From positions 1,007-65,006 of the forward strand of contig JAVBPR010000013.1 of assembly GCA_031549485.1 (NCBI GenBank): a stretch of DNA of 64,000 nt. The letters run 5' to 3'. The stretch is from Eubacteriales bacterium (GTDB taxonomy: Bacteria; Bacillota; Clostridia; Oscillospirales; Feifaniaceae). This document shows, piece by piece, positions 8,013-56,148 of the stretch. Each line of letters opens with the position of its first letter. The first letter of the stretch is position 1. The position numbers and the translations under genes are program-made. The notes beneath the pieces were generated by a model, which saw only the letters and a list, made by a program, of their open reading frames with translations, was not told the DNA's origin and did not search any database.

Positions 8013-8018
8013 CGAAGA

Positions 8019-8954: not shown

Positions 8955-9051
8955 ATAAAAAAACATCAAAATATTGTGGTTTTTGCTTAAAATACTATTG
9001 AAAATTAAATAGTATTATTATAAAATTATTTTGTATTTTTTTGAAATATCT

Positions 9052-9083
9052 CATGCTTCGGCAGCGCGTTTTGCCGAAGCATG
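9052..9083 (+). promoter_or_regulatory. Strong 12-bp stem-loop in the pur operon leader, 5 nt upstream of the purE RBS
   Basis: CATGCTTCGGCAgcgcgtttTGCCGAAGCATG, followed by atttgtgAGAGGAG. No purine-riboswitch core was seen. Confidence 0.45.
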
Positions 9084-9102
9084 ATTTGTGAGAGGAGATT
9101 GC

Positions 9103-9591: not shown

Positions 9592-9648
9592 GAAAGTTTC
9601 TTTATGACGCGAAAAAGCGGACAAATAAAACGATTTGTAGGAGATAAG

Positions 9649-11276: not shown

Positions 11277-11277
11277 G

Positions 11278-12819: not shown

Positions 12820-12836
12820 GTTAAGGCGGGTTTAGG

Positions 12837-14096: not shown

Positions 14097-14131
14097 AATT
14101 CGAGATAAAAATCAAGAAAAGGAAGTGCGAA

Positions 14132-15412: not shown

Positions 15413-15413
15413 A

Positions 15414-17015: not shown

Positions 17016-17022
17016 AAACAAT

Positions 17023-17049
17023 AATCCCCCGGGCAAAACCCGGGGGATT
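17023..17049. terminator. Bidirectional rho-independent terminator (pyrG / SDR gene)
   Basis: AATCCCCCGGGcaaaaCCCGGGGGATT perfect GC-rich hairpin between convergent genes. Confidence 0.8.
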
Positions 17050-17094
17050 ATTATATGCAAAACCCGCTGAAGAGGTTACATTATTTTAGAAAAA

Positions 17095-41236: not shown

Positions 41237-41346
41237 CAAATGAAAATATAAAAACTTAATCGGTTTATACAAATAACAACACCCCGGGCGGTTGCCCGGG
41301 GTGTTGCTATTTGTATCAGTAAATTATATTACTCTTACGCTCAAAA
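41237..41346 (+). repeat. 110-bp direct repeat, copy B (overlaps the true serA 3' end)
   Basis: See copy A. The terminator hairpin copy is at 41277-41306. Confidence 0.95.
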
Positions 41347-42484
41347 TATCGGGAATAGATTTAATTTTATCGACAATCTCGGCCGAAACCGGCTCAATTG
41401 TTTCAAGAACGGTATATCCATACTCGTCTTTGGATTTATTAAACATATTCTCGATATTGATGCCGCAATCGGAGACGGCGGCTGTTATCGCGGTTATCTT
41501 ATGCGGAATATTGCGGTGGATTATGCAAAGCCTTGACATATCGGTCGAGGGAAGCGCAAGGCTCGGCATATTAACGCTATTTACGATGCTTCCGTTTTCA
41601 AGATAATCAATAAGCTCGGTGCAGGCGGCGATTGCGCAGTTGTCTTCGCTTTCCGGTGTGGAAGCGCCGAGATGAGGAATGCAAATCGCGTTTTTCATCT
41701 TAAGCGTTTTCTCGTTCGGGAAGTCGGTTACATAGCTTGCAACCTTGCCGCTCTCGAGGGCTTTTGCCATATCGTCGTCGTTCACAATTTCGCCGCGCGA
41801 GAAATTGAGGATGCGGACGCCGTCCTTCATCTGCGCAAAAGTTTTTTCGCAGAACAAACCTCTTGTTTCGCCGTTTAGCGGCATATGAATCGAAATATAA
41901 TCAGCCTCTTTGAAAATCTCTGTTATATCATTTATTTTGGCGATATGCCTTGAAATCCGCCATGCGGAAGTGACCGACATAAAGGGATCATATCCCATAA
42001 CGTCCATACCGAAAGAACGCGCTGCGTTAGCGACGAGAACGCCGATTGCGCCAAGACCGACAACGCCAAACTTTTTGCGGTAAACCTCGGGTCCGCCGAA
42101 CGCGCTTTTGCCTTTTTCGACAAGAGCGGGGATTTCATCGCCTTTATCGGCGATTGTTTTTACCCATTCGATGCCGTCTGCAACTTTTCGCGAAGAAAGA
42201 AGCATACCGGTGAGAACAAGCTCTTTAACGGCATTTGCGTTAGCGCCCGGGGTGTTGAAAACGACGATTCCGGCTTCGCTGCAACGCTTTATCGGAATGT
42301 TGTTTGTTCCTGCGCCGGCGCGGGCAATTGCTTTCAGCTTATCGCCGAACTCCATTTCAAGCAAATCGCCGCTGCGGACGAGAATACCGTCCGGGTTTTC
42401 GCTGTCGTTTAAAGCGTATTTGCTTTTGTCAAAAAGATCGGTGCCGCAAGCTGCAATTTTATTAAACTGTTTAATTTCAAACAT
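41324..42484 (-). CDS. serA: D-3-phosphoglycerate dehydrogenase with a C-terminal ACT domain
   Basis: 386 aa. It has a 2-hydroxyacid dehydrogenase fold (GVVGLGAIG NAD motif) and a C-terminal ACT-like ~70 aa. It is adjacent to serC. Confidence 0.9.
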   Translation of the reverse strand: MFEIKQFNKIAACGTDLFDKSKYALNDSENPDGILVRSGDLLEMEFGDKLKAIARAGAGTNNIPIKRCSEAGIVVFNTPGANANAVKELVLTGMLLSSRKVADGIEWVKTIADKGDEIPALVEKGKSAFGGPEVYRKKFGVVGLGAIGVLVANAARSFGMDVMGYDPFMSVTSAWRISRHIAKINDITEIFKEADYISIHMPLNGETRGLFCEKTFAQMKDGVRILNFSRGEIVNDDDMAKALESGKVASYVTDFPNEKTLKMKNAICIPHLGASTPESEDNCAIAACTELIDYLENGSIVNSVNMPSLALPSTDMSRLCIIHRNIPHKITAITAAVSDCGINIENMFNKSKDEYGYTVLETIEPVSAEIVDKIKSIPDILSVRVI

Positions 42485-42500
42485 AAGTCACCTTCAAGAA

Positions 42501-43580
42501 TTATTTATTTTCCGCCTCGAATTTTTTCATAAATTCAACGAGTGCGGTGATACCTTCGATAGGCATTGCGTTGTAGATTGAAGCTCTCATTCCGCCGACC
42601 GAGCGGTGACCTTTAAGGTTTACAAAGCCGTTTGCCGATGCTTCTTTAACGAATTTCGCGTCGAGCTCGTCGTTGCCTGTAACGAAAGGAATGTTCATCA
42701 AAGAGCGGTCTTTTTTGTCAACCGTTGCGCTGAACATTGCGGAACTGTCGAGAAAATCATAAAGAACAGCTGCTTTTTTCTCGTTTATGGCTTTCATGCC
42801 AGCAAGTCCGCCGTTATCCTTAACCCACTGCAAAACAAGGCCGCAAATATATATCGCGTAGCAGGGCGGGGTGTTGTACATAGATTCATTTTCCGCATAT
42901 GTAACGTAATTGAGCATAGTCGGGGTGTAATCACGGGCTTTGCCGAGAAGGTCTTCTCTGATTATCGCGACCGTAAGCCCTGACGGCCCCATATTCTTTT
43001 GGGCGCCGGCATAAATCATCGCATATTTTGAAACATCGACCGGTTCAGAGAGAATGCAGGAACTCATATCCGAGATAAGCGGAATTTCGCCCGCGTTCGG
43101 AGTTTCGTGCCATTTTGTGCCGTAAATGGTGTTGTTTTCACATATGTGCAGATAATCGGCATCTTTCGGAATAAGCGAATAATCGATCTCCGGAATATAT
43201 GAAAAAGTTTTATCTTTCGAGCTGCCGACAACAACACAGTCGCCGTAGCGGGAAGCCTCGTCATAGGCTTTTTTCGCCCATTGACCGGTAATAGCAAAAG
43301 CCGCTTTTCCGCTTCCGTTAAGGAAATTAAGCGGAATCATAGCAAACTGCATGGAAGCGCCGCCCTGTAAAAACAGAACCTTGTAATTATCCGGAATATT
43401 CATAAGCTCGCGAAGCAGAGCTTCGGTGTTATGCAGGATAGTCTCAAAAGGTTTTGAGCGGTGGCTCATCTCCATAACCGACATGCCGGAATTACCCTGG
43501 TCAAGCATCTCGACCTGCGCTTTTTCAAGCACCGGCAAAGGCAAGCAGGACGGGCCGGCAGAAAAATTGTAAACTCTCAT
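42501..43580 (-). CDS. serC: Phosphoserine aminotransferase
   Basis: 359 aa. MRVYNFSAGPS.. start, GGAS, and AGAQKN (PLP lysine region) are typical of SerC. RBS GGAGGA. Confidence 0.93.
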   Translation of the reverse strand: MRVYNFSAGPSCLPLPVLEKAQVEMLDQGNSGMSVMEMSHRSKPFETILHNTEALLRELMNIPDNYKVLFLQGGASMQFAMIPLNFLNGSGKAAFAITGQWAKKAYDEASRYGDCVVVGSSKDKTFSYIPEIDYSLIPKDADYLHICENNTIYGTKWHETPNAGEIPLISDMSSCILSEPVDVSKYAMIYAGAQKNMGPSGLTVAIIREDLLGKARDYTPTMLNYVTYAENESMYNTPPCYAIYICGLVLQWVKDNGGLAGMKAINEKKAAVLYDFLDSSAMFSATVDKKDRSLMNIPFVTGNDELDAKFVKEASANGFVNLKGHRSVGGMRASIYNAMPIEGITALVEFMKKFEAENK

Positions 43581-43684
43581 ATTATCCTCCTAAAAATAAA
43601 CTAATGTTAATATATTATCATAGTGAAAAAAGTAATTCAATTCTAAGAAAGATAAAATTTTCACAAATTGAAAATTCTTTTGCG

Positions 43685-43713
43685 TTGACTATGGAAACTT
43701 GCTTTAATATAAT
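43685..43713 (+). promoter_or_regulatory. Sigma-A-type promoter for the hydrogenase-sensor operon
   Basis: TTGACT, a 17-nt spacer, then TATAAT, about 50 nt upstream of the first DRTGG gene. Confidence 0.65.
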
Positions 43714-43761
43714 AATATTATTATATTATTAATTTTTAATATATTTTGAAAGGTTACAGAA

Positions 43762-44115
43762 ATGAAAATCAAGGAAATAGTTGAAATTTTGGAAGGAACT
43801 GTACTTTGCGGAGAGGAGCTTATCGAGACCGAGGTGCATTCAGCCTGCGGCAGCGATATGATGAGCGATGTGCTCGCGTATGTTAAGGATCAGGCGGTGC
43901 TTTTGACCGGCCTTGTTAATCCTCAGACGGTCAGAACGGCAGAAATGATGGATATGTGCTGTATCGTTTTTGTCCGCGGCAAACAACCAGACGAGCAGAT
44001 GATAGAGCTTGCAAAAGAGCATGGCATTGTGCTTATTAAAACAAATATGCGCATGTATATTGCCTGCGGACTGCTATATACAAAGGGGCTCGGCCAGGTT
44101 CAGACCTACTGTTAG
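43762..44115 (+). CDS. DRTGG domain protein
   Basis: 117 aa. VLLTGLVNPQ..VRTAE..CIVFVRGK fits the DRTGG domain layout. Confidence 0.75.
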   Translation: MKIKEIVEILEGTVLCGEELIETEVHSACGSDMMSDVLAYVKDQAVLLTGLVNPQTVRTAEMMDMCCIVFVRGKQPDEQMIELAKEHGIVLIKTNMRMYIACGLLYTKGLGQVQTYC

Positions 44116-44128
44116 GAGCAAATTAATA

Positions 44129-44551
44129 ATGAGTAATTCTATAAAGCTGCATTACGATATAAGCGGCGATAATTTTACCTCGGCGGGAGAGGCGTCAACG
44201 GCGCTTAAAAGAGAGCTTAAAAAGCTCGGACTTCCGCAGGAATTCATCCGCAAGGTCACGATAGCTATGTATGAAGGAGAAATAAATCTCGTTATCCACG
44301 GCGGCGGCGGAATTGCTGACGTTGAGATTGACGATGAGAAAATATACATAGTGCTTTGTGACCACGGCCCGGGTATAAAAGATGTGAAACTTGCGATGCA
44401 AGAGGGGTATTCCACCGCAAACGACGATGTGCGTTCGCTCGGCTTCGGCGCCGGGATGGGGCTTCCAAACATGAAAAAATACACCGATAATTTGAAAGTT
44501 GACAGCACCGTCGGAGTCGGAACAACGGTGAAAATGACTATTTTGATCTAA
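44129..44551 (+). CDS. Anti-sigma-factor-type serine kinase (RsbW/SpoIIAB-like HATPase)
   Basis: 140 aa after trimming to the ATG following AGGAG. It has N-box E..N..HG, G1 DHGPGI and G2 GFGAGMGL. Confidence 0.8.
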   Translation: MSNSIKLHYDISGDNFTSAGEASTALKRELKKLGLPQEFIRKVTIAMYEGEINLVIHGGGGIADVEIDDEKIYIVLCDHGPGIKDVKLAMQEGYSTANDDVRSLGFGAGMGLPNMKKYTDNLKVDSTVGVGTTVKMTILI

Positions 44552-44572
44552 ATATGTCCGGATGGAAAGGAC

Positions 44573-45907
44573 TTGAGAAATTTGGAAAATAACGTTTATC
44601 ATTCGGTCACGCTTGACAGCGATAAGTGCCTTGGCTGCACGAATTGCATCAAGCGGTGCCCGACAGAAGCGATAAGAGTACAAAAGGGTAAGGCGAAGAT
44701 AATTAAAGACAGGTGCATCGATTGCGGCGAATGTATTCGCGTTTGTCCGCATCATGCAAAACGTGCCGTTTTTGATTATCTTGACGATTTCAAGGGCAAG
44801 TTCAAATGCCTTATCGCCGTTCCGGCGCCCGCGCTATACGGTCAATTTAATAATTTAAATGATGTTAATTTTGTTCTTACAGGGCTTCAAAAGATCGGCT
44901 TCGACCGCGTTTTTGAGGTCTCGCGCGCGGCAGAAATCGTTTCGGATTTCACAAAAGAATTCTTAAACAACAAGGAAAAATATAAAATTAAATCTCCCGC
45001 GATCAGTTCGGCGTGTCCTGCGGTAATAAGGCTGATTACTGTAAAATTCCCCTCGCTTATCCCTAATATTTTACCCGCTTTTCCGCCAGCGGAATTGGCG
45101 GCAAAAATGGCGAAAAAAGAGGCGGCTGCGGAACTCGGATTGCACGAAGAAGAAATCGGCGCGATTTTTATTTCGCCTTGCCCGGCGAAAGTTACCGCGG
45201 CAAAAGCTCCGCTCGGCATAAAAAAGAGTCATATAGACGGCTGCGTCGCAATCAGCAGTCTTTATAAAGACCTCGTTTCGGTTATGAATAAAATCGAGTC
45301 GCCGGAAAAATTTTCACAGTCCGGCCTTGAGGGGATAAGCTGGGCGATTTCCGGAGGAGAATCGGACGCGCTGCACCGCGAAAAATATCTTGCGGCCGAT
45401 GGGATAGAAAACTGCAACAAAATTCTCGGCGAAATCGAGGACGGAAAATTCCCCGAGCTTGAATTTATCGAGCTTAATGTTTGTACCTCCGGTTGCGTCG
45501 GCGGAACGATGAATTTCGAGTCGCCGTTTGTCGCGAAAAGCAGGGTAGGGCGCTTGCGCCGGAATATGCCGCTCTCTTGTAACAGCATTGCTTCAAGCGG
45601 ACTTTCGGGCAGCGACGTAAACTTAAACGACATCCTTGTCGAAAATAAGGCGTTTATCCTTTCTTCCGACCGGAAAAAAGCAATGGAAATGAAGATACAG
45701 ATCGACGAAATATGCAATGGCCTTGCGGGGCTTGACTGCGGTTCTTGCGGCGCGCCGTCCTGTAAAGCGCTGGCGGAGGATATCGTTCGCGGACACGCAA
45801 AAGAGAGCGACTGCATCTTCAAACTTCGCGAAAAACTCGCCGGCGTTTGGGGCGACATTTCCTCTTTTGATAAATACGGACCAAATATAAAAAATGGAGA
45901 AAAATGA
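44573..45907 (+). CDS. HydS-like putative sensory [FeFe]-hydrogenase (2x[4Fe-4S] + H-domain + C-terminal Cys cluster)
   Basis: 444 aa. It has two ferredoxin motifs (CLGCTNCIKRCP, CIDCGECIRVCP). The H-cluster motifs are divergent: L1 SSACP, L2 SPCPAK, L3 ELNVCTSGCVGG. The C-terminus carries CGSCGAPSC...C. The start could be TTG 44573 or 44582. Confidence 0.8.
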   Translation: MRNLENNVYHSVTLDSDKCLGCTNCIKRCPTEAIRVQKGKAKIIKDRCIDCGECIRVCPHHAKRAVFDYLDDFKGKFKCLIAVPAPALYGQFNNLNDVNFVLTGLQKIGFDRVFEVSRAAEIVSDFTKEFLNNKEKYKIKSPAISSACPAVIRLITVKFPSLIPNILPAFPPAELAAKMAKKEAAAELGLHEEEIGAIFISPCPAKVTAAKAPLGIKKSHIDGCVAISSLYKDLVSVMNKIESPEKFSQSGLEGISWAISGGESDALHREKYLAADGIENCNKILGEIEDGKFPELEFIELNVCTSGCVGGTMNFESPFVAKSRVGRLRRNMPLSCNSIASSGLSGSDVNLNDILVENKAFILSSDRKKAMEMKIQIDEICNGLAGLDCGSCGAPSCKALAEDIVRGHAKESDCIFKLREKLAGVWGDISSFDKYGPNIKNGEK

Positions 45908-46236
45908 TGACGGTAAATGATTTCGCTTCGCAAATCGGCGCCGAATTTATCGCCGGTACCGGCGGCGGAAACAGAGTTATAAGCGGTTGCTATATCGGCG
46001 ATTTGCTCAGCTTTGTCATGGGAAAGGCGCAGTGCGGAGATTGCTGGATAACTATAATGTCAAACCTGAATGTTATAGGAGTAGGCTCGCTCACCGATGT
46101 TGCATGCATTCTTTTGGCGGAAGGCGTAAAACTTGATCAAAACGCGAAAGAAAAAGCGGATGAAGAGGATATCGCGGTTTTGTCGTCCGATAAATCCGCA
46201 TATGAGCTTGCAGCCTGTCTTTCAAAGCTGATATGA
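45904..46236 (+). CDS. DRTGG domain protein (second copy)
   Basis: 110 aa with an ATGA overlap with the hydS-like stop. Its layout is similar to the first DRTGG gene. Confidence 0.7.
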   Translation: MMTVNDFASQIGAEFIAGTGGGNRVISGCYIGDLLSFVMGKAQCGDCWITIMSNLNVIGVGSLTDVACILLAEGVKLDQNAKEKADEEDIAVLSSDKSAYELAACLSKLI

Positions 46237-46970
46237 AAGCCTTTTATGATCTGCATATCCATACCTGCCTTTCGCCGTGCGCAGAGGATGATATGACACC
46301 GGTGAATGTGGTGAATATGGCGAAACTCGCAGGGATTGATATCATAGCGGTAACCGATCATAACACCGTGAAAAACTGCGGCGCCGCAATCAAATGCGGT
46401 GAAGAGGCGGGGATAACGGTTATCCCGGGAATGGAGCTTACAACCGCCGAGGAAGCGCATATCATCTGCCTTTTTCCGGAACTTTCGCTTGCCGAAAAAT
46501 TTGAGCTCGAACTGGATAAAAGAAGAAGTAAAATTCCAAACCGAGCCGATATTTTCGGGAGGCAGCTTATTGTTGATAAAGATGAGAATATAATTTCGGA
46601 GTATCCTTTTATGCTCTCGGCGGCGACCGAAATAGGAACTTTTGAGATTGTCGGCCTTGTCGAAAAATTCGGCGGGGCAGCATATCCCGCACATATTGAC
46701 AGGCAATCGATGAGCGTTGTTGCTACGCTCGGATTTATCACGCCCGATATGAATTTTAAAACGGTCGAATTTTCAAGGGAAGGCATAGAAAACGGTATGC
46801 CCGAAAAAATGAAAAAACTTTATCTTGATTTGCCGTATATCACCGCTTCGGATGCTCACCGTCTTGAGGATATCAAAGACGCGAAATATTGCATAGAAAT
46901 TGAAGATATTTCTGCTGAAAATATAGTGGATTTTATTCGCCGCGGGGAGCTAAAGCTAATTGCAAATTAA
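46233..46970 (+). CDS. PHP-domain phosphoesterase
   Basis: 245 aa. The YDLHIHTCLSPC and AVTDHNT metal-binding motifs are PHP-type. ATGA overlap with the upstream gene. Confidence 0.8.
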   Translation: MKAFYDLHIHTCLSPCAEDDMTPVNVVNMAKLAGIDIIAVTDHNTVKNCGAAIKCGEEAGITVIPGMELTTAEEAHIICLFPELSLAEKFELELDKRRSKIPNRADIFGRQLIVDKDENIISEYPFMLSAATEIGTFEIVGLVEKFGGAAYPAHIDRQSMSVVATLGFITPDMNFKTVEFSREGIENGMPEKMKKLYLDLPYITASDAHRLEDIKDAKYCIEIEDISAENIVDFIRRGELKLIAN

Positions 46971-46988
46971 ATTTGCGCGTGTTATAAT
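46960..46988 (+). promoter_or_regulatory. Extended -10 promoter for the structural hydrogenase operon
   Basis: TTGCAA, a 17-nt spacer, then TGtTATAAT. It overlaps the 3' end of the PHP gene. Confidence 0.55.
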
Positions 46989-47049
46989 GACGGTTAGCGT
47001 GTAGTTTTAGCGGATTCTTTCTTTAACTACACAATTTTTACGGCCAACT

Positions 47050-47067
47050 ATGTTATAAATTTAACAA
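47050..47067. promoter_or_regulatory. Rex-like operator
   Basis: ATGTTATaaatTTAACAA against the clostridial Rex consensus TTGTTAAnnnnTTAACAA. The right half is perfect and the left half has 2 mismatches. It lies about 25 nt upstream of the hydC start. Confidence 0.45.
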
Positions 47068-47090
47068 TCTAAATACAAGGAGGAGCTTTT

Positions 47091-47594
47091 ATGGGTGCCA
47101 AAAAAGTTTTGCCGTTTAAAGGAACGGCGGAGCAAGAGGCGAAGCTTTATGAAGTTATCGCGCATTGGAAAGGAAAAGACGGAGGGCTTATGCCTGTGCT
47201 GCAGGAGGCGCAGGAGATATACGGCTATCTTCCCGAAGAAGTGCAGATGATGATTTCGGAGGGAATGCATGTTTCGATGAGCGAGATTTACGGGGTAATC
47301 ACTTTTTACTCGCAGTTTAATCTCTCGCCGAAAGGCAAATACAAAATCGGTGTCTGCCTCGGAACCGCTTGCTATGTTCAAAATGCGGGCGATGTTTTTG
47401 AGAGGCTTAAAATCGTTTTGGGACTTGAATCGGGCGAATGCACCGAAGACGGCATATTTTCGCTTGATGGGACACGCTGCCTCGGATGCTGCGGACTTGC
47501 GCCGGTGCTTATGGTAAACGATGACGTTTACGGGCGCTTGAAACCCGAAGAAGTTGACAAAATCGTTGAAAAATACAGGAAACTCGAAGCATAA
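47091..47594 (+). CDS. hydC: NuoE-like [2Fe-2S] subunit of the bifurcating hydrogenase
   Basis: 167 aa. It has the C..GTAC...C.GCC thioredoxin-like 2Fe-2S motif. Strong RBS AAGGAGGAG. Confidence 0.9.
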   Translation: MGAKKVLPFKGTAEQEAKLYEVIAHWKGKDGGLMPVLQEAQEIYGYLPEEVQMMISEGMHVSMSEIYGVITFYSQFNLSPKGKYKIGVCLGTACYVQNAGDVFERLKIVLGLESGECTEDGIFSLDGTRCLGCCGLAPVLMVNDDVYGRLKPEEVDKIVEKYRKLEA

Positions 47595-48145
47595 TGAAAG
47601 AGCTTTCGCTTAATGTTCTTGATATCGCCGAAAATTCCGCAAAAGCCGGTGCCTTGCTTATAAAAATTTATTTGCGCGAAGACAGCGCAAATAAAAATAT
47701 CGAGATAATAATATCCGATAACGGGTGCGGCATGGACGAAGATTTTTTAAAATCGGTTGTCAGCCCCTTTACAACAACGAGAACAACAAGGAAAATCGGG
47801 CTTGGCATTCCGCTTTTCAAGGAAGCGGCGGAAATAACGGGCGGCAGTTTTGAAATCACCTCGAAGGTCGGGGAAGGAACAGAAGTCAAAGCTACATTTT
47901 TAAGCGACAGCATAGACTGTATGCCGGTCGGCGATATGGCCGGAACTTTTGTGACACTTGTCAGGGGACATCCCGAAATTGACTTCTATTATTATAGGTC
48001 GATGGATGATGAGTTTTTTGAGGTATCAACCCTTGAAATAAAACAAATCATGGACGGAATCCCGATTGACAGTTACGAAGTTTGCAGTTTTATCACCGAA
48101 TTTATCAATGAAAATACAACCGAAATTTTAGGAGGAAATATATGA
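47594..48145 (+). CDS. Histidine-kinase-like ATPase (HATPase_c only) embedded in the hydrogenase operon
   Basis: 183 aa. It has N-box NVLDIAENS, G1 DNGCGM and G2 GLGIPL. There is no DHp/His domain, TM or sensor domain. It overlaps both neighbours. Confidence 0.8.
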   Translation: MKELSLNVLDIAENSAKAGALLIKIYLREDSANKNIEIIISDNGCGMDEDFLKSVVSPFTTTRTTRKIGLGIPLFKEAAEITGGSFEITSKVGEGTEVKATFLSDSIDCMPVGDMAGTFVTLVRGHPEIDFYYYRSMDDEFFEVSTLEIKQIMDGIPIDSYEVCSFITEFINENTTEILGGNI

Positions 48146-48510
48146 AGTCACTTGAAGAGCTCGCCAAAATCCGGGCACAAATGAAAGAAAAGATGGAAGT
48201 TCGAAACGATACAGAAGCGAGCACAAGAATTGTTGTGGGTATGGCAACATGCGGAATTGCAGCGGGAGCAAGACCGGTTCTAAATGCGCTTGCGGAAGAG
48301 GTTGCAAAAAGAAAGCTTTCGGGTGTGCTTGTTACACAAACCGGATGTATCGGCGTTTGCCGCCTTGAGCCTATTGTCGAGGTTTACGAAAACGGCAAGG
48401 AAAAAGTTACCTACGTTAGAATGGACGAAAATAAGGCAAGACGCATTGTAAATGACCATATTGTTAACGGAAATGTTGTTACAGAATATACAATAGGAAA
48501 AGCGGAATAG
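48142..48510 (+). CDS. hydD: Thioredoxin-like [2Fe-2S] ferredoxin subunit
   Basis: 122 aa. The cysteines are spaced as in NuoE-type 2Fe-2S ferredoxins (MATCGIAAG...GCIGVC). Confidence 0.8.
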   Translation: MKSLEELAKIRAQMKEKMEVRNDTEASTRIVVGMATCGIAAGARPVLNALAEEVAKRKLSGVLVTQTGCIGVCRLEPIVEVYENGKEKVTYVRMDENKARRIVNDHIVNGNVVTEYTIGKAE

Positions 48511-48523
48511 GAGGTAAGTGGAA

Positions 48524-50311
48524 ATGGTAAGATCGCATATACTTGTTTGCGGAGGCACCGGATGTACTTCCTCCGGCTCCAAAGATATCATAACCGAATT
48601 TGAAAAAGAGCTTGCGGTAGCAAATATCGCCGACGAAGTAAAGGTCGTCATGACCGGCTGCTTCGGCCTTTGCGCACTCGGCCCGATTGTAATAGTTTAC
48701 CCGGAAGGGGCTTTTTACAGCAGGGTAGAGCCGAAAGACATAAAAGAAATTGTCGAAGAGCATATTGTAAAAGGAAGAATCGTTAAAAGGCTTATTTACG
48801 ATGAGACGCTTCAGGGCGATGAAATCACAAGCCTTAATGAAACCGGATTTTACAAAAAGCAGATTCGTATCGCGCTTCGCAACTGCGGCGTTATTAACCC
48901 GGAAAATATTGACGAATACATAGCTACCGACGGATACCTCGCGCTTGAAAAAGTTCTCACCGGAATGACTTCGGAGGAAGTAATTAAAACGATTACCGAT
49001 TCCGGTCTCCGCGGAAGAGGCGGCGCGGGATTTTCAACAGGGCTTAAATGGAAATTTACCGCCGATGCAAAAGGCGATAAAAAATATGTCTGCTGTAATG
49101 CCGACGAAGGCGACCCCGGCGCATTTATGGACCGCTCGGTTCTCGAAGGTGATCCGCACGCGCTTATCGAAGCAATGGCAATTGCCGCTTTTGCGGTCGG
49201 CGCCGACCAGGGTTATGTTTATGTCCGCGCGGAGTATCCGATTGCTGTCGCAAGGCTTAAACTTGCTATCGAGCAGGCAAAAGATTACGGACTTCTCGGC
49301 AATAACATCCTCGGAACAGACTTCTCATTTGACCTTGAAGTTAGGCTCGGAGCCGGAGCGTTTGTCTGCGGCGAGGAAACCGCGCTTATGACCTCGATAG
49401 AGGGCAAAAGAGGCGAGCCGCGTCCGCGTCCGCCGTTTCCGGCTGTCAAAGGCCTTTTCGGCAAGCCGACACTTTTAAATAACGTTGAAACATACGCAAA
49501 TATCGCGCAGATAATCTTAAAAGGCGCGGATTGGTTTGCGTCTATGGGAACAGAAAAGAGCAAAGGCACAAAGGTTTTTGCTCTCGGCGGAAAAATTCAT
49601 AACACCGGGCTTGTCGAAGTCCCGATGGGAACGACCTTGCGCGAAATTGTCGAGGAAATAGGCGGCGGATGCCCGAACGGCAAAAAATTCAAAGCGGCTC
49701 AGACCGGCGGTCCTTCCGGCGGCTGTATTCCGTCATCTTTAATCGACACACCGATTGACTATGAAAGCCTTATGGCTATCGGCTCCATGATGGGCTCCGG
49801 CGGACTTATCGTTATGGACGAAGACAACTGTATGGTCGATATCGCTAAATACTTCCTTGAGTTTACGGTTGACGAGAGCTGCGGCAAATGTGTGCCGTGC
49901 CGTATCGGAACAAAAAGAATATACGAGATTCTTGAAAAAATCACCGAAGGCAAGGCGAAGCTCGAAGATCTCGATCTTCTCGAAGAACTTTGCTATCATG
50001 TAAAAGCCAACAGCCTTTGCGGTCTCGGCCAAACAGCACCGAACCCCGTTTTGTCGACTTTGAAATATTTCAAAGATGAGTATATTGCCCATGTTGTCGA
50101 CAAAAAATGTCCTTCCGGCGTATGTAAAAGTTTACTTTCTTACAGCATTGATCCTGTTAAGTGTATAGGATGCACCGTTTGCGCAAAGAATTGTCCTGTA
50201 AACTGTATTTCGGGCGAGCTCAAGAAACCGCATGTTATCGATCAGGATAAATGTATAAAATGCGGCGTTTGCGAAAGCAAATGTAAGTTCGCTGCTGTCA
50301 GCAGGGTTTAA
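48524..50311 (+). CDS. hydB: NuoF-like NAD(P)H/FMN-binding subunit of the bifurcating hydrogenase
   Basis: It has GRGGAGFSTGLKW, the ESCGKCVPCR N3-cluster motif, an N-terminal 2Fe-2S and two C-terminal 4Fe-4S motifs. ATG 48524 lies 9 nt after AGGAGG (GTG 48518 is also open). Confidence 0.93.
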   Translation: MVRSHILVCGGTGCTSSGSKDIITEFEKELAVANIADEVKVVMTGCFGLCALGPIVIVYPEGAFYSRVEPKDIKEIVEEHIVKGRIVKRLIYDETLQGDEITSLNETGFYKKQIRIALRNCGVINPENIDEYIATDGYLALEKVLTGMTSEEVIKTITDSGLRGRGGAGFSTGLKWKFTADAKGDKKYVCCNADEGDPGAFMDRSVLEGDPHALIEAMAIAAFAVGADQGYVYVRAEYPIAVARLKLAIEQAKDYGLLGNNILGTDFSFDLEVRLGAGAFVCGEETALMTSIEGKRGEPRPRPPFPAVKGLFGKPTLLNNVETYANIAQIILKGADWFASMGTEKSKGTKVFALGGKIHNTGLVEVPMGTTLREIVEEIGGGCPNGKKFKAAQTGGPSGGCIPSSLIDTPIDYESLMAIGSMMGSGGLIVMDEDNCMVDIAKYFLEFTVDESCGKCVPCRIGTKRIYEILEKITEGKAKLEDLDLLEELCYHVKANSLCGLGQTAPNPVLSTLKYFKDEYIAHVVDKKCPSGVCKSLLSYSIDPVKCIGCTVCAKNCPVNCISGELKKPHVIDQDKCIKCGVCESKCKFAAVSRV

Positions 50312-50323
50312 GGGGGTAGAAAG

Positions 50324-52072
50324 ATGGAAAAAGTAACAATTAAAATTAACGGAAAAGAATACCAGGTAGAAGCGGGCCAAACTATATTGAACGCGGCGCG
50401 TTCGGTCGGTATAGTTATCCCGACGCTCTGTTATCTCAAGAAGATAAACGCCATCGGTTCCTGCCGTGTTTGCGTTGTCGAGGTTAAGGGCGCGCGAAGC
50501 CTTGTTACAGCTTGCGTTTATCCGATTACAGACGGTATGGAGATTACCACAAATTCTCCCGCGGTTTTGAAATCGAGAAAAATGACGCTCGAGCTTATCC
50601 TTTCAAATCATAAGAGAAAATGCCTTTCCTGCGTTCGAAGCGGAAATTGCGAACTTCAAACTCTTTCGAACGAATACGGGCTTGAGGAAGTCCGCTTTGG
50701 TATCGACGAGGACGACGAGAAATTCCCTATCGAAGAATCAAACGGAATTATCATCCGCGATAACAATAAATGTATCCTCTGCCGCCGCTGTGTTGCGGCA
50801 TGCCGCGAGCAGCAGGCTGTTTCGGTTATCGGAGCAAATAACAGAGGGTACAATACAAGCATCGGTTGCGCTTTTGAAAAAGGCCTTGCAAATGTTCCTT
50901 GCGTTTCCTGCGGTCAGTGCATAATAAACTGCCCGACAGGCGCGCTTACCGAGCGTGACGACGTCAAAAAAGTTTTGGCGGCTATTAACGACGAAACAAA
51001 GCATGTCGTTGTCGGCGTTGCTCCCTCTATCCGCGTTCATATGGGCGAATTTTACGGTTACCCGATGGGTACAAATGTTGAGGGCAAGGTTGTTGCTGCG
51101 CTTCACCGCATGGGCTTTGACGGCGTTTTTGACGTAGACACCGCCGCCGACTTCACAATTATGGAAGAGGGCACCGAGTTCCTTTCAAGGATTAAAAACA
51201 ACGGTCCGCTTCCGCTTATAACTTCGTGCTCGCCGGGCTGGATAAACTACTGTGAAAAATTTTATCCCGAATTTATTAAAAATCTTTCAAGCTGCAAATC
51301 TCCGCAGGGGATGTTCGGCGCGCTTATGAAAACCTATTACGCCGAAAAGACCGGGATTGATCCTAAAGATATTGTCGTTGTCAGCATTATGCCGTGTACC
51401 GCGAAGAAAGACGAAGCGGACCGCCCGCAAAACCAGGCATCGGGATATCCGGATATCGATATCGCAATCACCAGCCGCGAATTTGCAAGGCTTATAAATC
51501 TTATGGGCATTAAATTTAATGAGCTTCCGGAAGAGGATTTTGACGAAGCCTTTGGCATCGGCTCCGGCGCAGGCCATATTTTCGGCGCGACCGGCGGCGT
51601 TATGGAGGCAGCTTTGCGTACAGTCAGCGAAGTTGTAACGGGCAAACCGCTTGAAAAACCGGAATTCAACGAAGTTCGCGGAACTGCTGATATAAAGGAA
51701 GCAACCTATACAATCGGCGACAAAACGGTTAATGTCGCGGTTGCAAGCGGACTTGCAAATGCGAAAAAACTGCTTGATTCTATTAAAGACGGCAGCAAAA
51801 AATATGACTTTGTCGAGATTATGGCGTGCCCCGGCGGCTGTGTAAACGGCGGCGGACAGCCGATTAATCCCTCCGGCGTTGTCAATTTTGTGGAAGTGCG
51901 AAAAACAAGAGCCGAAGGGCTTTACAGCGAAGACGCTAAAACAACTATCAGAAAAAGCCATGAAAACCCGGTTGTAAAGAAAGTTTACAATGATTATCTA
52001 AAAGAGCCGGGCAGCCACAAAGCGCACGAAATTCTTCACACAAAATATAAACAGCAGGAAAAATACAGATAA
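50324..52072 (+). CDS. hydA: [FeFe]-hydrogenase catalytic subunit (group A, multimeric bifurcating type)
   Basis: 582 aa. It has an N-terminal 2Fe-2S and accessory 4Fe-4S motifs. The H-cluster motifs are L1 TSCSPGW, L2 MPCTAKKDE and L3 EIMACPGGCVNGGGQP. Confidence 0.93.
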   Translation: MEKVTIKINGKEYQVEAGQTILNAARSVGIVIPTLCYLKKINAIGSCRVCVVEVKGARSLVTACVYPITDGMEITTNSPAVLKSRKMTLELILSNHKRKCLSCVRSGNCELQTLSNEYGLEEVRFGIDEDDEKFPIEESNGIIIRDNNKCILCRRCVAACREQQAVSVIGANNRGYNTSIGCAFEKGLANVPCVSCGQCIINCPTGALTERDDVKKVLAAINDETKHVVVGVAPSIRVHMGEFYGYPMGTNVEGKVVAALHRMGFDGVFDVDTAADFTIMEEGTEFLSRIKNNGPLPLITSCSPGWINYCEKFYPEFIKNLSSCKSPQGMFGALMKTYYAEKTGIDPKDIVVVSIMPCTAKKDEADRPQNQASGYPDIDIAITSREFARLINLMGIKFNELPEEDFDEAFGIGSGAGHIFGATGGVMEAALRTVSEVVTGKPLEKPEFNEVRGTADIKEATYTIGDKTVNVAVASGLANAKKLLDSIKDGSKKYDFVEIMACPGGCVNGGGQPINPSGVVNFVEVRKTRAEGLYSEDAKTTIRKSHENPVVKKVYNDYLKEPGSHKAHEILHTKYKQQEKYR

Positions 52073-52079
52073 ATTTTTC

Positions 52080-52113
52080 AAAGCTCCTTGTCTAAAACGG
52101 ACAGGGAGCTTTA
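52080..52113 (+). terminator. Terminator hairpin after hydA
   Basis: AAAGCTCCTTGTCtaaaacgGACAGGGAGCTTT (one G-T pair). Confidence 0.65.
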
Positions 52114-52211
52114 AATTCACAAATTTTTAACTATAATTAACAATTAATTAACATTGATTCTAACATTAAGCTGTATTATAGATACAATTGGAACAGCATA
52201 AGGAGAGAAGT

Positions 52212-54266
52212 ATGGCTTTGAAATCTTCGAAAAAGAAAAATGAAAATGGCGAGTCGGTAGGTTCAGCAAAGAAAAAATTCAAATTTAAATGGAAATGGCT
52301 TATAATCGCTGTCATAATCGCGGTTGTAGGTTATTTTGCTTTGTCATATTTTTCGAAAGGAAAGACCGAAGCAGCGACCAATTTATCCGAAGCGGCGGCA
52401 ACGCAGGGCGACATCACTGCAACAATTTCAAGCACCGGCACGGTAGAGCCGATAGAGCAGTATGAAATAATCTCCAGGGTTACCGGCGACGTGCTTTATG
52501 ACAATCTCGCCGTCGGCGAGACGGTCGAAAAAGACCAGCTTCTTTATCAGGTTGACAGCACAAAGGTGCAAAACAGCATAAAAAAGGCGGAGCTTTCGAT
52601 TGAAAAGCAAAAACTTTCATATAATCAGACAAAAAACGATTATGATAAAACACTCGAAAAGCAAACGGTAACGGCGCCGATAGGCGGTATTGTAACGAGC
52701 CTTTACATAAAAAACGGGGACAATATAACAAACGGAACAAAAATCGCCGATATAACCGATTACGCAAATCTTATCCTGAAAATTCCGTTTCATCAGATGA
52801 ATGCAAAAGAATATTATGTCGGTCAAAGCGCGAAAATTATCCTCGAAATGACCGACGAGGTGATTTACGGCACGGTAAAATCCGTCCCGACAGGGTACTA
52901 TGTAAACAGCAGCGGGCTTTCGGTTGTCGACGTTGAAATATCCTTTAAAAATCCGGGCGGTATCGGCGAGGGCGAGACGGCAACGGCGCAAATAGGCAGC
53001 TATGCATGTGTCAATGCCGCGGCTATAGAATACGGCGGAATAAAAACGGTTTTTGCCGAGACAAACGGTGAGGCTATCGGGCTGTCGCTTGCAAAGGGCG
53101 ATAGAATAAGCGAAGGCGATGTAATAATCAGGCTTAAAAACGACAGCAGCAGTACCGAAACAAACTTAAAATCAAGCGAACTCTCGCTAAGGGATGCTGA
53201 GCTTTCGCTTGCCGACCAATACGAAAGTCTTGAAGACTATAACATCAAATCGCCTATATCTGGCACCGTCTTAAAGAAAACGGTTAAAAAAGGCGACAGC
53301 CTCGGAACAAGCGCAAACAGCAGCGTTCTCGCGGTTATCGCGGATATGAGCAAGCTGACTTTTACAATGAATATCGACGAGCTCGAAATCAAAAAAGTGT
53401 CGGTCGGAACAGAAGTAAAAATTACGGCTGACGCGCTTCCCGATGCATCTTTTACAGGCTATGTCGATAATATCAGCGTCCTCGGAACGACCACGAATGG
53501 AGTTACAACTTATCCGGTGGAAGTTATTATCGAGGATTACGGCGATTTGCGTCCGGGCATGAACGTGAATGCGGATATCGTGACCGATGAGGTTACAAAT
53601 GTAATTATGGTACCGGTTTCTGCGGTAACGAGAGGAAGCCTTGTTCTTGTAACAGAGGAATACGCAAATCAAATCAACGGCATAAGCGGTACAGAAACAG
53701 GAAAACCAAACGGAGGCGAAAATCAAAACGGAGCCGGCGCGCTTTCGGGCAACAGCCCTCAAAATCAAACACCACAGGGCGCTGCGGGCGGCAGCGGGCA
53801 GAGACCGCAAAGAGCTGGGGGCGAATCGGGAAGCACAGGAGAGATTCCTCAAAGGGCTGGGGGCGGTAGTGGAAACAGCGGCTTTGGCGATCAAAACGGT
53901 GCAAATCAGGGGATGACCGTTTCACCGCAAAGCGGCGAAAATAACAGCGGAAATACAGCTGCAGGCGGTTTTGGCAATATAAAAGCGGGATCGATTGTTT
54001 CGATGCCGGATACTCCGGCAGGCTATAAATATATAAAAGTGGAAACAGGACTAAGCGACGGTAATTTTATCGAAATTAAAGCCGGACTTACGGTAAATGC
54101 AAAGGTATTTATTTCGATTGCAACATCAAGCGTATTTGATATTTTCGGCGGCAATAACGGCATGACCATGGGCCCGAGCGGCGGAATGGGCGGCGGCAAC
54201 TTCAGCGGCGGGCAAAGACCGCAGCAATTCAGCGGAGCCCAAGGGAATGTAACGGTAGTAAGATAA
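52212..54266 (+). CDS. HlyD/MacA-type periplasmic adaptor (membrane fusion) protein with G/N/Q-rich insertions
   Basis: It has an N-terminal TM anchor, lipoyl-like and beta-barrel segments (APIGGIVTSL, SPISGTVLKK). Long low-complexity tracts lie near the C-terminus. ATG after AAGGAGAG. Confidence 0.8.
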   Translation: MALKSSKKKNENGESVGSAKKKFKFKWKWLIIAVIIAVVGYFALSYFSKGKTEAATNLSEAAATQGDITATISSTGTVEPIEQYEIISRVTGDVLYDNLAVGETVEKDQLLYQVDSTKVQNSIKKAELSIEKQKLSYNQTKNDYDKTLEKQTVTAPIGGIVTSLYIKNGDNITNGTKIADITDYANLILKIPFHQMNAKEYYVGQSAKIILEMTDEVIYGTVKSVPTGYYVNSSGLSVVDVEISFKNPGGIGEGETATAQIGSYACVNAAAIEYGGIKTVFAETNGEAIGLSLAKGDRISEGDVIIRLKNDSSSTETNLKSSELSLRDAELSLADQYESLEDYNIKSPISGTVLKKTVKKGDSLGTSANSSVLAVIADMSKLTFTMNIDELEIKKVSVGTEVKITADALPDASFTGYVDNISVLGTTTNGVTTYPVEVIIEDYGDLRPGMNVNADIVTDEVTNVIMVPVSAVTRGSLVLVTEEYANQINGISGTETGKPNGGENQNGAGALSGNSPQNQTPQGAAGGSGQRPQRAGGESGSTGEIPQRAGGGSGNSGFGDQNGANQGMTVSPQSGENNSGNTAAGGFGNIKAGSIVSMPDTPAGYKYIKVETGLSDGNFIEIKAGLTVNAKVFISIATSSVFDIFGGNNGMTMGPSGGMGGGNFSGGQRPQQFSGAQGNVTVVR

Positions 54267-54289
54267 CGAAAGATTGGAACCGAAAACAG

Positions 54290-54970
54290 ATGATTGAGTT
54301 TAAAGACGTATATAAAATATACAAAATGGGTGATAACGAAGTCCGCGCGGTTGACGGCGTCAGCTTTAAGATTGAAGAGGGCGAGTTTGTTGCCATAATC
54401 GGTCAGAGCGGCTCCGGAAAATCGACTTGCATGAATATAATCGGCTGCCTTGATATCCCGACAGAAGGGCAATATGTTTTAAACAACAAGGATATCGGAA
54501 CATTTACGCAAGACGAGCTTGCGGAAATCCGGAACAGAACGCTCGGGTTTATCTTTCAGCAGTATAATCTTATCGCTAAACTAAACGTCTATGAGAATGT
54601 GGAACTGCCGCTTATTTATTCATCGGTGCCCCCGTCTCAAAGGCATGATAAGGTTATGAAATGCCTTGAGCGTGTCGGGCTTTCGGAAAGAATTAAGCAT
54701 ATGCCGAATGAGCTTTCGGGCGGGCAGCAACAGCGTGTTTCTATTGCAAGAGCGCTTGCAAATGATCCCTCGGTCATACTTGCAGACGAGCCGACCGGCG
54801 CGCTTGACTCAAAAACCGGAATAGAGGTTCTTGCGCTTTTGCAGGAGCTCAACGAAGAGGGGAACACGATTGTTTTAATCACACATGACGAAAAAATAGC
54901 TAACAAGGCGAAACGCATTATCCGCCTGCATGACGGCAAAGTAACAGAGGATAGCGAGGTGGTTGCGTGA
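54290..54970 (+). CDS. ABC transporter ATP-binding protein (MacB/LolD type)
   Basis: 226 aa. Walker A GQSGSGKST, signature LSGGQQQR and Walker B ILADEPTGALD are present. Confidence 0.93.
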   Translation: MIEFKDVYKIYKMGDNEVRAVDGVSFKIEEGEFVAIIGQSGSGKSTCMNIIGCLDIPTEGQYVLNNKDIGTFTQDELAEIRNRTLGFIFQQYNLIAKLNVYENVELPLIYSSVPPSQRHDKVMKCLERVGLSERIKHMPNELSGGQQQRVSIARALANDPSVILADEPTGALDSKTGIEVLALLQELNEEGNTIVLITHDEKIANKAKRIIRLHDGKVTEDSEVVA

Positions 54971-56148
54971 AATTTTCTCAGGCATTTAAGCTCGCCTTAA
55001 AAAGCCTTTCGGGAAGCAAAATGCGCGCGTTTTTGACCATGCTCGGAATTATCATCGGCGTCGGCTCTGTTATAATTTTGCTTAGTAGTATGGGCGGTTT
55101 TCAAAGCAGCCTTACAGATACATTCGAATCGATGGGAACAAGCAACCTGACCGTTACGATTACCGGCCGTGCGGGGGATGTAAAGATTGATCCCGAGGAA
55201 TTTACACAATACGCGTTTGACAATTCGGAATTTTTTAATTACGCATCGCCGACAGTAAATGCCGGAAGCATGACGGTTCGGAAAGGTACAACCGAAACGA
55301 CCTCCTCGGTCACCGGCGGAAACGAATATTATCAAAATATTAAAGATTATCATTTGTCGGCCGGGCGGTTTATTTCATATTCGGATTTAATGCAAAAAAA
55401 CTATATCTGCGTCATCGGCAGCTATAACGCAAATGAGCTTTTCGGGGACGCGCAAAGCGCTATCGGACAAGAGATAAAACTAAACGGAACAAGATTTATA
55501 GTCGAGGGTGTTATCGAGGCAAAAGAGGACAGCAGCGAAAATTCGAGCGATAATTTTGTCGTGATACCGTATACCACGGCGCAAAGGCTTGTAAAGAGCC
55601 AGAATGTAAATTCCTATACTTTTGTTGCAAAAAGCACAGACATCGCGCCTTTGGCAAAAACAAATATCGAAACATATCTTTTTAAAATTTTTAACGACAG
55701 CGATTATTACAGGGTTACGAGCCTTGCCGAAATTTTGGATCAGGTCGATACCGTTATGAATCAGCTTTCGCTTGTCCTTGTAGGAATAGCGGCGATATCG
55801 CTTCTTGTCGGAGGCATCGGGATCATGAATATCATGCTTGTTTCGGTAACCGAGAGAACGAAAGAAATAGGCATTCGAAAATCGCTTGGCGGCAAGCGCA
55901 GAGATATTATGACGCAGTTTGTTATAGAGGCGGGAACGACAAGCGCGCTCGGAGGGGTGCTTGGAATAGGTTTCGGAATTTTAACCGCCAACCTTCTTGC
56001 CCCGCTTCTTCAAGTAAAGGCGGTTACTTCGCCGTTTTCCATTATACTTGCATTTTCAGTTTCGGTTGGAATCGGTATAATTTTCGGATATTTTCCCGCA
56101 TCCAAGGCGGCAAAACTAAATCCTATAGACGCTTTGCGTTTTGATTAA
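54967..56148 (+). CDS. ABC transporter permease (FtsX/MacB type, 4 TM plus a large extracytoplasmic domain)
   Basis: 393 aa. It has the MacB_PCD-like loop between TM1 and TM2 and a C-terminal FtsX domain (GIRKSLGG..). GTG start overlaps the ATPase stop. Confidence 0.9.
   Translation: MKFSQAFKLALKSLSGSKMRAFLTMLGIIIGVGSVIILLSSMGGFQSSLTDTFESMGTSNLTVTITGRAGDVKIDPEEFTQYAFDNSEFFNYASPTVNAGSMTVRKGTTETTSSVTGGNEYYQNIKDYHLSAGRFISYSDLMQKNYICVIGSYNANELFGDAQSAIGQEIKLNGTRFIVEGVIEAKEDSSENSSDNFVVIPYTTAQRLVKSQNVNSYTFVAKSTDIAPLAKTNIETYLFKIFNDSDYYRVTSLAEILDQVDTVMNQLSLVLVGIAAISLLVGGIGIMNIMLVSVTERTKEIGIRKSLGGKRRDIMTQFVIEAGTTSALGGVLGIGFGILTANLLAPLLQVKAVTSPFSIILAFSVSVGIGIIFGYFPASKAAKLNPIDALRFD

Follow-up and report, generated by a model that had tools for sequence, protein, structure and literature searches.

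A SpoIIAB-like kinase, two DRTGG proteins and a putative sensory [FeFe]-hydrogenase as a candidate signalling module beside a HydABC operon

This analysis concerns a five-gene unit in a 64,000-nucleotide stretch of contig JAVBPR010000013.1 from a Eubacteriales bacterium; the whole stretch is called the window, and positions refer to it. The genes, here g1 to g5, encode a small DRTGG protein, a SpoIIAB/RsbW-like kinase, the [FeFe]-hydrogenase-like protein HydS, a second DRTGG protein and a PHP-family phosphoesterase. They are followed by the operon of a HydABC hydrogenase (hydC-HKlike-hydD-hydB-hydA, in which HKlike encodes a stand-alone GHKL ATPase). Our preferred reading, which is tentative and which we place a little short of probable, is a partner-switch-like system with the kinase and the two DRTGG paralogues as its core and HydS as a swappable sensor. 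The main new evidence comes from gene fusions and variant cassettes, which suggest which proteins are the partners of HydS and which residue may be a phospho-site. To go by the same data, DRTGG proteins may be the transducers of a wider signalling cassette. The features of the five-gene unit are as follows.

43685-43713, + strand: candidate sigma-70-like promoter for the five-gene unit (TTGACT-17-TATAAT, pattern match only)
43762-44115, + strand: g1, DRTGG protein of 117 amino acids (Pfam DRTGG 35.4 bits, gathering threshold 25.2)
44129-44551, + strand: g2, SpoIIAB/RsbW-like GHKL kinase of 140 amino acids (HATPase_c_2 42.8 bits, gathering threshold 27.4)
44573-45907, + strand: g3, HydS, 444 amino acids (two Fer4 domains, Fe_hyd_lg_C at 108 bits, PF04060 FeS domain at the C-terminus)
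45904-46236, + strand: g4, second DRTGG protein, 110 amino acids (Pfam DRTGG 24.5 bits, slightly below the gathering threshold of 25.2)
46233-46970, + strand: g5, PHP-family metal-dependent phosphoesterase of 245 amino acids (Pfam PHP 37.5 bits, gathering threshold 26.4)

The genes are tightly packed and are probably co-transcribed as one unit. Gaps of 13 and 21 nt separate g1 from g2 and g2 from g3, and ATGA overlaps join g3 to g4 and g4 to g5. The promoter candidate matches the consensus at 11 of 12 positions and has the top score in the 11.5 kb that were scanned (42500-54000). The original prediction, which was made from the letters of the window, had described five closely spaced genes with these domains behind a near-consensus promoter; open reading frames (ORFs), junctions and Pfam searches bear this out, with g4 recognized through hhalign. 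Two start codons needed attention. The mechanical ORF of g2 begins at TTG 44009 within g1, and ATG 44129, which has GGAG before it, is most likely the true start. In g3 there are two in-frame TTG starts, and the one at 44582 gives a 441-amino-acid form, as in the public database entry. Public sources yielded no names for the window proteins. A Pfam search of the operon detected no STAS, sigma-factor, PAS or DNA-binding domain, so that an output domain is indeed absent, as had been predicted. The PP2C domain is likewise absent by Pfam from all ten genes of the unit and the hyd operon.

The arrangement is conserved far beyond the window, among gut and fermenting Clostridia. In a scan of one genome per species, at least 593 genomes encode a relative of g3. 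The 80 best loci (L001-L080), each from a different species, all of the Oscillospirales type and at 51-56% identity, were used for a gene-order survey in which the ten window proteins were searched against all ORFs. The g1 and g2 genes lie directly upstream of HydS in all 77 loci with enough sequence, and g4 and g5 directly downstream in 72 of 76; this order rules out a chance adjacency of the five genes. The median gaps in the relatives are -4 nt (g1-g2), 23 nt (g2-g3), 3 nt (g3-g4) and 1 nt (g4-g5). Between g5 and hydC the gap is 120 nt in the window and 276 nt at the median in the relatives, and the contrast with the near-zero gaps inside the module fits two transcription units. The hydC-HKlike-hydD-hydB-hydA operon stands next to the module in 41 of the 80 loci (31 directly downstream, 7 divergent upstream and 3 nearby). 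Together with at least six genera in the literature, these loci support the co-occurrence with hydrogenase operons that had been predicted. The genes evolve at different rates: the median pairwise identity is 63-64% for g1 and g2, the slowest-evolving, 57% for HydS and 47-48% for g4 and g5.

The partners of HydS are indicated by gene fusions. We searched g2 against 1.84 billion cluster representatives and inspected the best 150 (50%-identity clusters). Among these are about 36 fusions of the kinase to HydS, with the kinase N-terminal, about 10 fusions of a g1-type DRTGG protein to the kinase and one in the order kinase-DRTGG. A further 24 or so join a pair of CBS domains to the kinase; 15 of them were checked and all 15 were confirmed. 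On contigs L082 and L083, the fusions were verified as single uninterrupted ORFs. In the kinase-HydS fusions (P0270, P0273, P0278 and 25 more), the cysteines of the H-cluster and of the accessory clusters are all retained. The fusions imply that the kinase, HydS and the g1-type DRTGG protein act as one physical unit. Variant cassettes were found as listed below.

L082: kinase::HydS fusion (864-2504), g4, PHP, HKlike, hydC, hydD
L083: hydC-like gene, g1::kinase fusion, HydS, g4, PHP, HKlike
L084-87: g1, CBS-kinase, g4, PHP; HydS absent
L088 (JGI metagenome 3300061376), 6694-17067: rex, g1, CBS-kinase, g4, PHP, NuoE, HKlike, HydD, NuoF/GltD fusion, molybdopterin FdhA-like subunit
L089, 8646-17169: g1, CBS-kinase, HydS, g4, then rnfCDGEAB; no PHP gene
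L091, 227-6084: g1, CBS-kinase, followed by the operon of a group 3 [NiFe]-hydrogenase; no PHP gene
L093: kinase and g4, divergent from hydC-HKlike-hydD

Taken together, fusions and variant cassettes point to a conserved core formed by the kinase with its DRTGG paralogues. CBS-kinase cassettes occur without HydS, which shows that the sensor input can be swapped and that HydS is one of two or more alternatives. Redox complexes linked to NAD(H)/ferredoxin are found beside the cassette in several forms and not as hydrogenases alone. For example, in L088 it stands with HKlike and HydD ahead of a NuoEF-type formate dehydrogenase, not a hydrogenase. Among the called genes of the variant loci, no sigma-factor or DNA-binding gene was found except rex (L081 and L088).

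Regarding the kinase, the boxes of the ATP-binding fold are conserved in 80 orthologues of g2: E.EIN..IH in the N box, D.GPGI in G1 and GFGAGMGLPN in G2. Its best match in the Protein Data Bank (PDB) is SpoIIAB (1TID, E 1.6e-5). Against the SpoIIAB family model TIGR01925, g2 reaches 60.3 bits (E 1.7e-16), under the equivalog cut-off of 135, and against the RsbW model NF003144 it scores 19.3 bits, where the cut-off of 145 is not reached. From these matches, g2 is best described as a putative SpoIIAB/RsbW-like serine kinase or anti-sigma-type ATPase.

The two DRTGG proteins are paralogues that align over their full length (g4 against the g1 family in hhalign, 98.4% probability, E 9e-15). The AlphaFold2 model of g1, with a predicted local distance difference test score (pLDDT) of 88.7, superposes in Foldseek on AF1212 (2IOJ) with a template-modelling score of 0.81 and on the DRTGG domain of CBS-PPase with 0.73; the N-domain of HPr kinase is also among the fold matches. 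The idea that g1 might be a cryptic STAS domain was rejected on the basis of this model and the Foldseek search, which return a DRTGG fold. In g1, the block ACGSDMMSDVL...LLTGL.NPQ..RTAEMMD...FVRGK is invariant or nearly so, and g4 conserves the motifs Y.gDLLSwVM and w.TvMgN.N. The name-giving D-R is lost in g1, where TGLVNPQ aligns with TGGDRSD of AF1212 and only T-G is retained; g4 has T-I/V-M-G/S-N at this position. One serine, Ser35 of g1 and Ser36 of g4, in the motif D-h-h-S-x-V, is invariant in 23 diverse g1- and g4-type sequences, a set that includes fusion proteins and distant loci. Ser35 belongs to the GSDMMSD loop and helix start, the lowest-confidence part of the otherwise confident model. 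This serine is a candidate phospho-site.

HydS retains the eight cysteines of two N-terminal [4Fe-4S] clusters. On alignment of 81 sequences, the four H-cluster ligands C148, C203, C304 and C308 are invariant, as is the CN-binding K206 (K358 in CpI), so that the active-site ligands on which the predicted hydrogenase likeness depended are all kept. The surroundings of the site differ from CpI. Ala147 (in SSACP) occupies the position of the proton-relay C299, Ser201 that of M353, and Asn that of M497 in the clade of the window HydS. At the C-terminus, the motif C389x2C392x4C397x16C414 is invariant, and a PAS domain was not detected by Pfam. The NCBIfam models for group A and group B hydrogenases give HydS 99.9 bits (cut-off 406) and 150.8 bits (cut-off 450), far below either cut-off and thus consistent with a separate group. 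A "putative sensory" class, M2e or Group D, has been defined with TamHydS as its type (PMC8163306). The assignment of HydS to this class is well supported by sequence features that agree with the published description of M2e and TamHydS, the match having been made to that description.

From these components we propose the following mechanism. The SpoIIAB-like kinase g2 and the paralogous g1 and g4 would form the signalling core. HydS would bind the kinase directly as a sensor module; elsewhere, this module forms one protein with the kinase, or a nucleotide-sensing CBS pair stands in for it. H2 would act at the H-cluster, whose ligands are retained and whose group A proton relay is lost, and would change the conformation of HydS and with it the activity of the kinase or its choice of partner. 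The g1 protein, whose gene stands directly ahead of the kinase gene and at the median in the relatives overlaps it, in the manner of rsbV-rsbW and spoIIAA-spoIIAB, would serve as antagonist, phospho-acceptor or both, the acceptor probably being the invariant Ser35 at a helix N-terminus. With the same fold and the same serine, g4 may compete for the kinase surface and pass the signal on, probably to the translationally coupled PHP protein, which in turn would reset the phospho-state or be the effector itself. The final target would lie outside the module, probably in a redox complex linked to NAD(H) or in the mRNA of such a complex; the contexts of the cassette (HydABC, NuoEF-type formate dehydrogenase, Rnf and group 3 [NiFe]-hydrogenase) place it among the NAD(H)/ferredoxin-linked complexes. 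The module would work in parallel with control of hydC-A transcription by Rex.

A broader version of this proposal is possible, and we regard it as doubtful. In it, the kinase and its DRTGG partner or partners would be an undescribed and widespread cassette in which DRTGG takes the role of STAS, HydS (for H2) and the CBS pair (for adenine nucleotides) are plug-in sensors, and PHP is the reset or effector. Such a cassette would act post-translationally, or by way of RNA or nucleotides, to control HydABC, NuoEF-type formate dehydrogenase, Rnf and group 3 [NiFe]-hydrogenase.

Several observations weigh against the partner-switch-like model. First, the substrates known for SpoIIAB/RsbW-type kinases are without exception STAS domains, and g1 is not one; no STAS structure is among the top 50 Foldseek matches of its model. 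Because g1 and g4 are not STAS in fold, the module is not a canonical partner switch, and the partner-switch label that had been predicted overreaches. Second, the CBS pair and the fused DRTGG protein share the same N-terminal position on the kinase, so a regulatory or dimerization domain describes DRTGG equally well as a substrate does. Third, the CN-binding lysine that the window HydS retains is replaced by glutamine in 22 of the 28 kinase-HydS fusions examined. To judge from this substitution, the glutamine-bearing fusions may lack a full H-cluster and be redox-sensing pseudo-hydrogenases, not H2 sensors. Fourth, H2 does not reduce the C-terminal cluster of TamHydS (PMC13104023). Fifth, the PHP gene is missing from four cassettes (L089, L091, L093 and L042), and the character of g5, described below, does not favor a reset phosphatase. 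Finally, hydABC is absent from about 20 of the 80 loci, roughly a quarter, although at least 8 kb are available on both sides. An obligatory link to hydABC is ruled out by these full-flank loci, and the predicted co-occurrence holds only as a frequent one. The flanks of the loci without hydABC consist of unrelated housekeeping genes (tRNA synthetase, YchF, GalT, ABC permease), which indicates that the five genes are an autonomous unit, often but not always beside hydABC.

The PHP protein offers a different output. Its residues H8, H10, D42, H43, E68, H76, H154, D207 and H209, which are all of the PHP metal ligands, are invariant in 41 sequences. PHP proteins canonically carry an S-D-G stretch after the HxH motif, the usual source of a metal ligand; in g5 it is replaced by H-T-C12-L-S-P-C16, in which C16 is invariant and C12 nearly so among the 41 orthologues. 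This C12-x3-C16 pair may supply the PHP active site with a thiolate ligand or act there as a redox switch. The best fold matches of the AlphaFold2 model (pLDDT 96) in Foldseek are EndoQ, BAD_1165, TM0559, RNase AM, Cv1693 and the PHP domain of PolC/Pol III, and the sequence matches in NCBIfam and the PDB are to TrlF-type PHP proteins, EndoQ, RNase AM, pAp-phosphatases and the Pol III PHP domain. BAD_1165 and Cv1693 are 3',5'-bisphosphate nucleotidases. The 37 Foldseek matches with E < 1e-3 include no CpsB/YwqE-type protein phosphatase. Thus, g5 looks nuclease- or nucleotidase-like in sequence and model, and the predicted role as the phosphatase of the switch becomes arguably the weaker reading. 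A second, longer PHP paralogue of 290 amino acids was also observed about 1.3 kb upstream of g1 in loci without hydABC (L026, 6734-7606), and it is placed likewise in some ten loci of Acutalibacteraceae (L023, L050, L054, L061, L066, L072, L073, L076 and L080).

These features allow an alternative, which we consider unlikely, in which PHP is the effector. The HydS-gated kinase and DRTGG core would switch g5, acting as a nuclease or a nucleotide phosphoesterase of the PHP family, and g4 would be the regulatory subunit of this enzyme. The output would then concern RNA or small nucleotides, such as 5'-end processing or decay of transcripts or the hydrolysis of pAp- or Ap4A-like compounds. The nearest relatives of g5 fit such a role, and so do the translational coupling and equal evolutionary rate of g4 and g5. 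DRTGG domains occur elsewhere in nucleotide-regulated proteins such as CBS-PPase, CBS nucleotide sensors take the place of HydS in sister cassettes, and the conserved C-x3-C in place of SDG hints at a redox- or metal-tuned active site. However, the four cassettes that lack PHP are otherwise complete, no substrate can be inferred, and the PHP fold is compatible with protein phosphatase activity, CpsB/YwqE being PHP enzymes.

The features of the operon downstream and of its control region are as follows.

46960-46988, + strand: hydC operon promoter candidate (TTGCAA-17-TG-TATAAT, 10/12 matches, extended -10 TG)
47050-47067, + strand: Rex-like operator candidate ATGTTATAAATTTAACAA, downstream of the hydC promoter candidate and ahead of the start codon of hydC
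47091-47594, + strand: hydC, NuoE-like 2Fe-2S subunit (PF01257, 169.7 bits)
47594-48145, + strand: HKlike, stand-alone GHKL ATPase of 183 amino acids (HATPase_c, 51.9 bits)
48142-48510, + strand: hydD, thioredoxin-like 2Fe-2S ferredoxin (NF041612, E 2.5e-12)
48518-50311, + strand: hydB, NuoF-like FMN/NAD subunit (Complex1_51K 154.7 bits, NADH_4Fe-4S 120.5 bits)
50324-52072, + strand: hydA, catalytic [FeFe]-hydrogenase of the HydABC type (NF040763, NADH-dependent group A6, 878 bits, above the cut-off of 765)

It is well supported that these genes encode an NADH/ferredoxin-linked HydABC hydrogenase and are transcribed separately from the module. The gene order is the one originally described, and the hydC promoter candidate overlaps the stop codon of g5, in line with the prediction of a new promoter where the module ends. 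Within L001-L080, every locus in which an adjacent hydC-hydD stretch is complete contains HKlike, and no locus without hyd genes does; HKlike also occurs in L088; it goes with hydC and hydD and never with the five-gene module alone. HKlike has a conserved C-terminal extension of about 80 amino acids (motif D..PlGD) with no Pfam or PDB match, and its gene precedes hydC in L082. On the other sides of the two operons, judged by translations only, the window carries unrelated genes: serA-like dehydrogenase and serC-like aminotransferase genes, divergent upstream (41324-43580, - strand), and, past hydA, genes whose products are a long membrane-fusion-like protein of low complexity, an ABC ATPase and an FtsX-type permease (52188-56148, + strand).

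The transcription of hydC-A is, from the operator-like sequence and its counterparts, probably controlled by Rex. Across the 64 kb window, the candidate operator ATGTTATAAATTTAACAA alone comes within 2 mismatches of TTGTTAANNNNTTAACAA, the clostridial Rex operator; it has 2 mismatches to the Rex consensus and 1 to the degenerate consensus. Rex-like sites with at most 1 mismatch are present upstream of hydC in 8 of 42 relatives and in 7 of 3000 random 200-nt windows. In C. thermocellum, DNA affinity purification sequencing (DAP-seq) of Rex gave a peak upstream of the orthologous operon Clo1313_1885-81, and the Rex regulon of C. bescii includes the counterpart operon Athe_1295-99 (PMC8457756). 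No rex gene was found in the window or within about 10 kb in the 80 loci with a B. subtilis Rex sequence as the query; the same query matched the Rex proteins of L081 and L088 at E 1e-40 to 1e-43, and in these two loci rex is directly upstream of the cassette. A riboswitch or attenuator in the g5-hydC spacer was rejected: there is no Rfam match with E < 0.6, and the leader is no stabler than shuffled sequences (z = 0.25).

This double equipment of hydC-A, a sigma-70-like promoter and a Rex-like operator, speaks against a classical anti-sigma logic, which we regard as quite improbable. Here, g2 would sequester an unlinked sigma or transcription factor, g1 and g4 would be analogues of anti-anti-sigma factors, and HydS would set which partner is bound. 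The similarity of g2 to the anti-sigma F factor SpoIIAB, its closest relative, speaks for it. The gene order also recalls known systems, since rsbV overlaps rsbW and spoIIAA overlaps spoIIAB, each directly upstream, and the order and overlap of g1 and g2 mimic them; moreover, the cassettes usually head operons that are possibly under their control. Nevertheless, g2 stays below the SpoIIAB equivalog cut-off (60 vs 135 bits), and no sigma-factor or DNA-binding gene lies in the variant loci, the two with rex excepted, or in the flanks of four relatives without hyd genes sampled with Pfam, where STAS and PAS domains were not detected either. Finally, we regard it as highly improbable that HydS is not a sensor and that it works instead as a catalytic or electron-input partner of low activity under the control of the kinase, DRTGG and PHP proteins, such as a safety valve or a factor for HydABC assembly or repair: its complete H-cluster site and two N-terminal clusters are those usual in catalytic electron transfer, turnover of H2 is seen with TamHydS and the sensing role of Group D is still labelled 'putative' in the TamHydS and comparative papers, but CBS domains replace HydS in sister cassettes, about 36 clusters fuse it to a signalling kinase, its proton relay is missing, and TamHydS combines low turnover with CO tolerance and sensor-like properties.

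How fermenting bacteria sense the partial pressure of H2 and shift electrons among H2, ethanol and acids is a long-standing question, which bears on hydrogen cycling in the gut and rumen and on biofuel strains. The locus in the window and its relatives provide testable candidates for the partners of Group D sensory hydrogenases, and the April 2026 study of TamHydS still calls the identification of interaction partners "critical" and states the same need for the signalling complex (PMC13104023). The papers searched name the neighbouring genes only as "a protein kinase" or "histidine kinase-like ATPase" and once as "AraC family regulator". Our literature search found no paper that pairs DRTGG or PHP (also HATPase or CBS) with [FeFe]- or sensory hydrogenases. 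If the broader DRTGG cassette is real, it would give DRTGG its first defined function and would identify the missing partners of Group D sensory hydrogenases. The resemblance of PHP to nucleotide and nucleic-acid esterases points to a possible output other than protein phosphorylation.

We compared the module with known systems, the closest of which are the Group D loci themselves. The distance between a gene of the "D M2e" class and hydD/B/A is exactly 5 locus tags in Caldanaerobacter (TTE0887), C. thermocellum (Cthe_0335), Caldicellulosiruptor (Athe_1292 and Csac_1857), C. phytofermentans (Cphy_3798) and Thermoanaerobacter (Teth39_1463 and Tmath_0862). The last of these is TamHydS of Thermoanaerobacter mathranii, upstream of Tmath_0865-0869. 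The same locus-tag spacing implies the ten-gene layout of the window, so this kind of locus was already known; its class already has a name, which the original prediction had not recognized, and the layout is not new. The TamHydS locus shares with the window the architecture of HydS, the active-site substitutions, the spacing to the hyd operon with two genes between and the adjacent kinase-like ATPase; at the M497 position TamHydS is reported to have Leu, whereas the window clade has Asn.

The Group C systems (M2f; R. albus HydS and Thermoanaerobacterium hfsABCD) likewise have an [FeFe]-like sensor, a Cx2Cx4Cx16C motif, Ser/Thr kinase or phosphatase genes and no obvious output, and there is genetic evidence that their sensor affects the fermentation balance. 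They contain PAS and a PP2C-type phosphatase, whereas the window module has no PAS domain, PHP instead of PP2C and two DRTGG proteins. In HoxBC-HoxJ-HoxA of Cupriavidus necator, a low-turnover hydrogenase also serves as H2 sensor on a kinase that controls hydrogenase expression. However, the metal site of HoxBC is unrelated, and the PAS histidine kinase HoxJ with the DNA-binding HoxA differs from a SpoIIAB-like kinase with no response regulator. Regarding the DRTGG proteins, g1 superposes on the CBS-DRTGG-CBS insert of CBS-PPase and on the stand-alone AF1212, and DRTGG and CBS co-occur in the sister cassettes; in g1 and g4, unlike in these proteins, the D-R residues are replaced, and each is a stand-alone protein with a kinase as its partner.

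Lastly, the SpoIIAA-SpoIIAB-SpoIIE and RsbV-RsbW-RsbU systems resemble the module in having a small HATPase_c_2 GHKL kinase, a gene for a protein of about 115 amino acids just upstream of the kinase gene and overlapping it, an invariant serine at a helix N-terminus and a phosphoesterase gene. Those partner-switching modules use a STAS antagonist, a PP2C phosphatase and a sigma factor, whereas the window has DRTGG and PHP proteins and no sigma factor. Unlike in them, the third partner in the window module and its relatives is the metallo-sensor HydS or a CBS pair.

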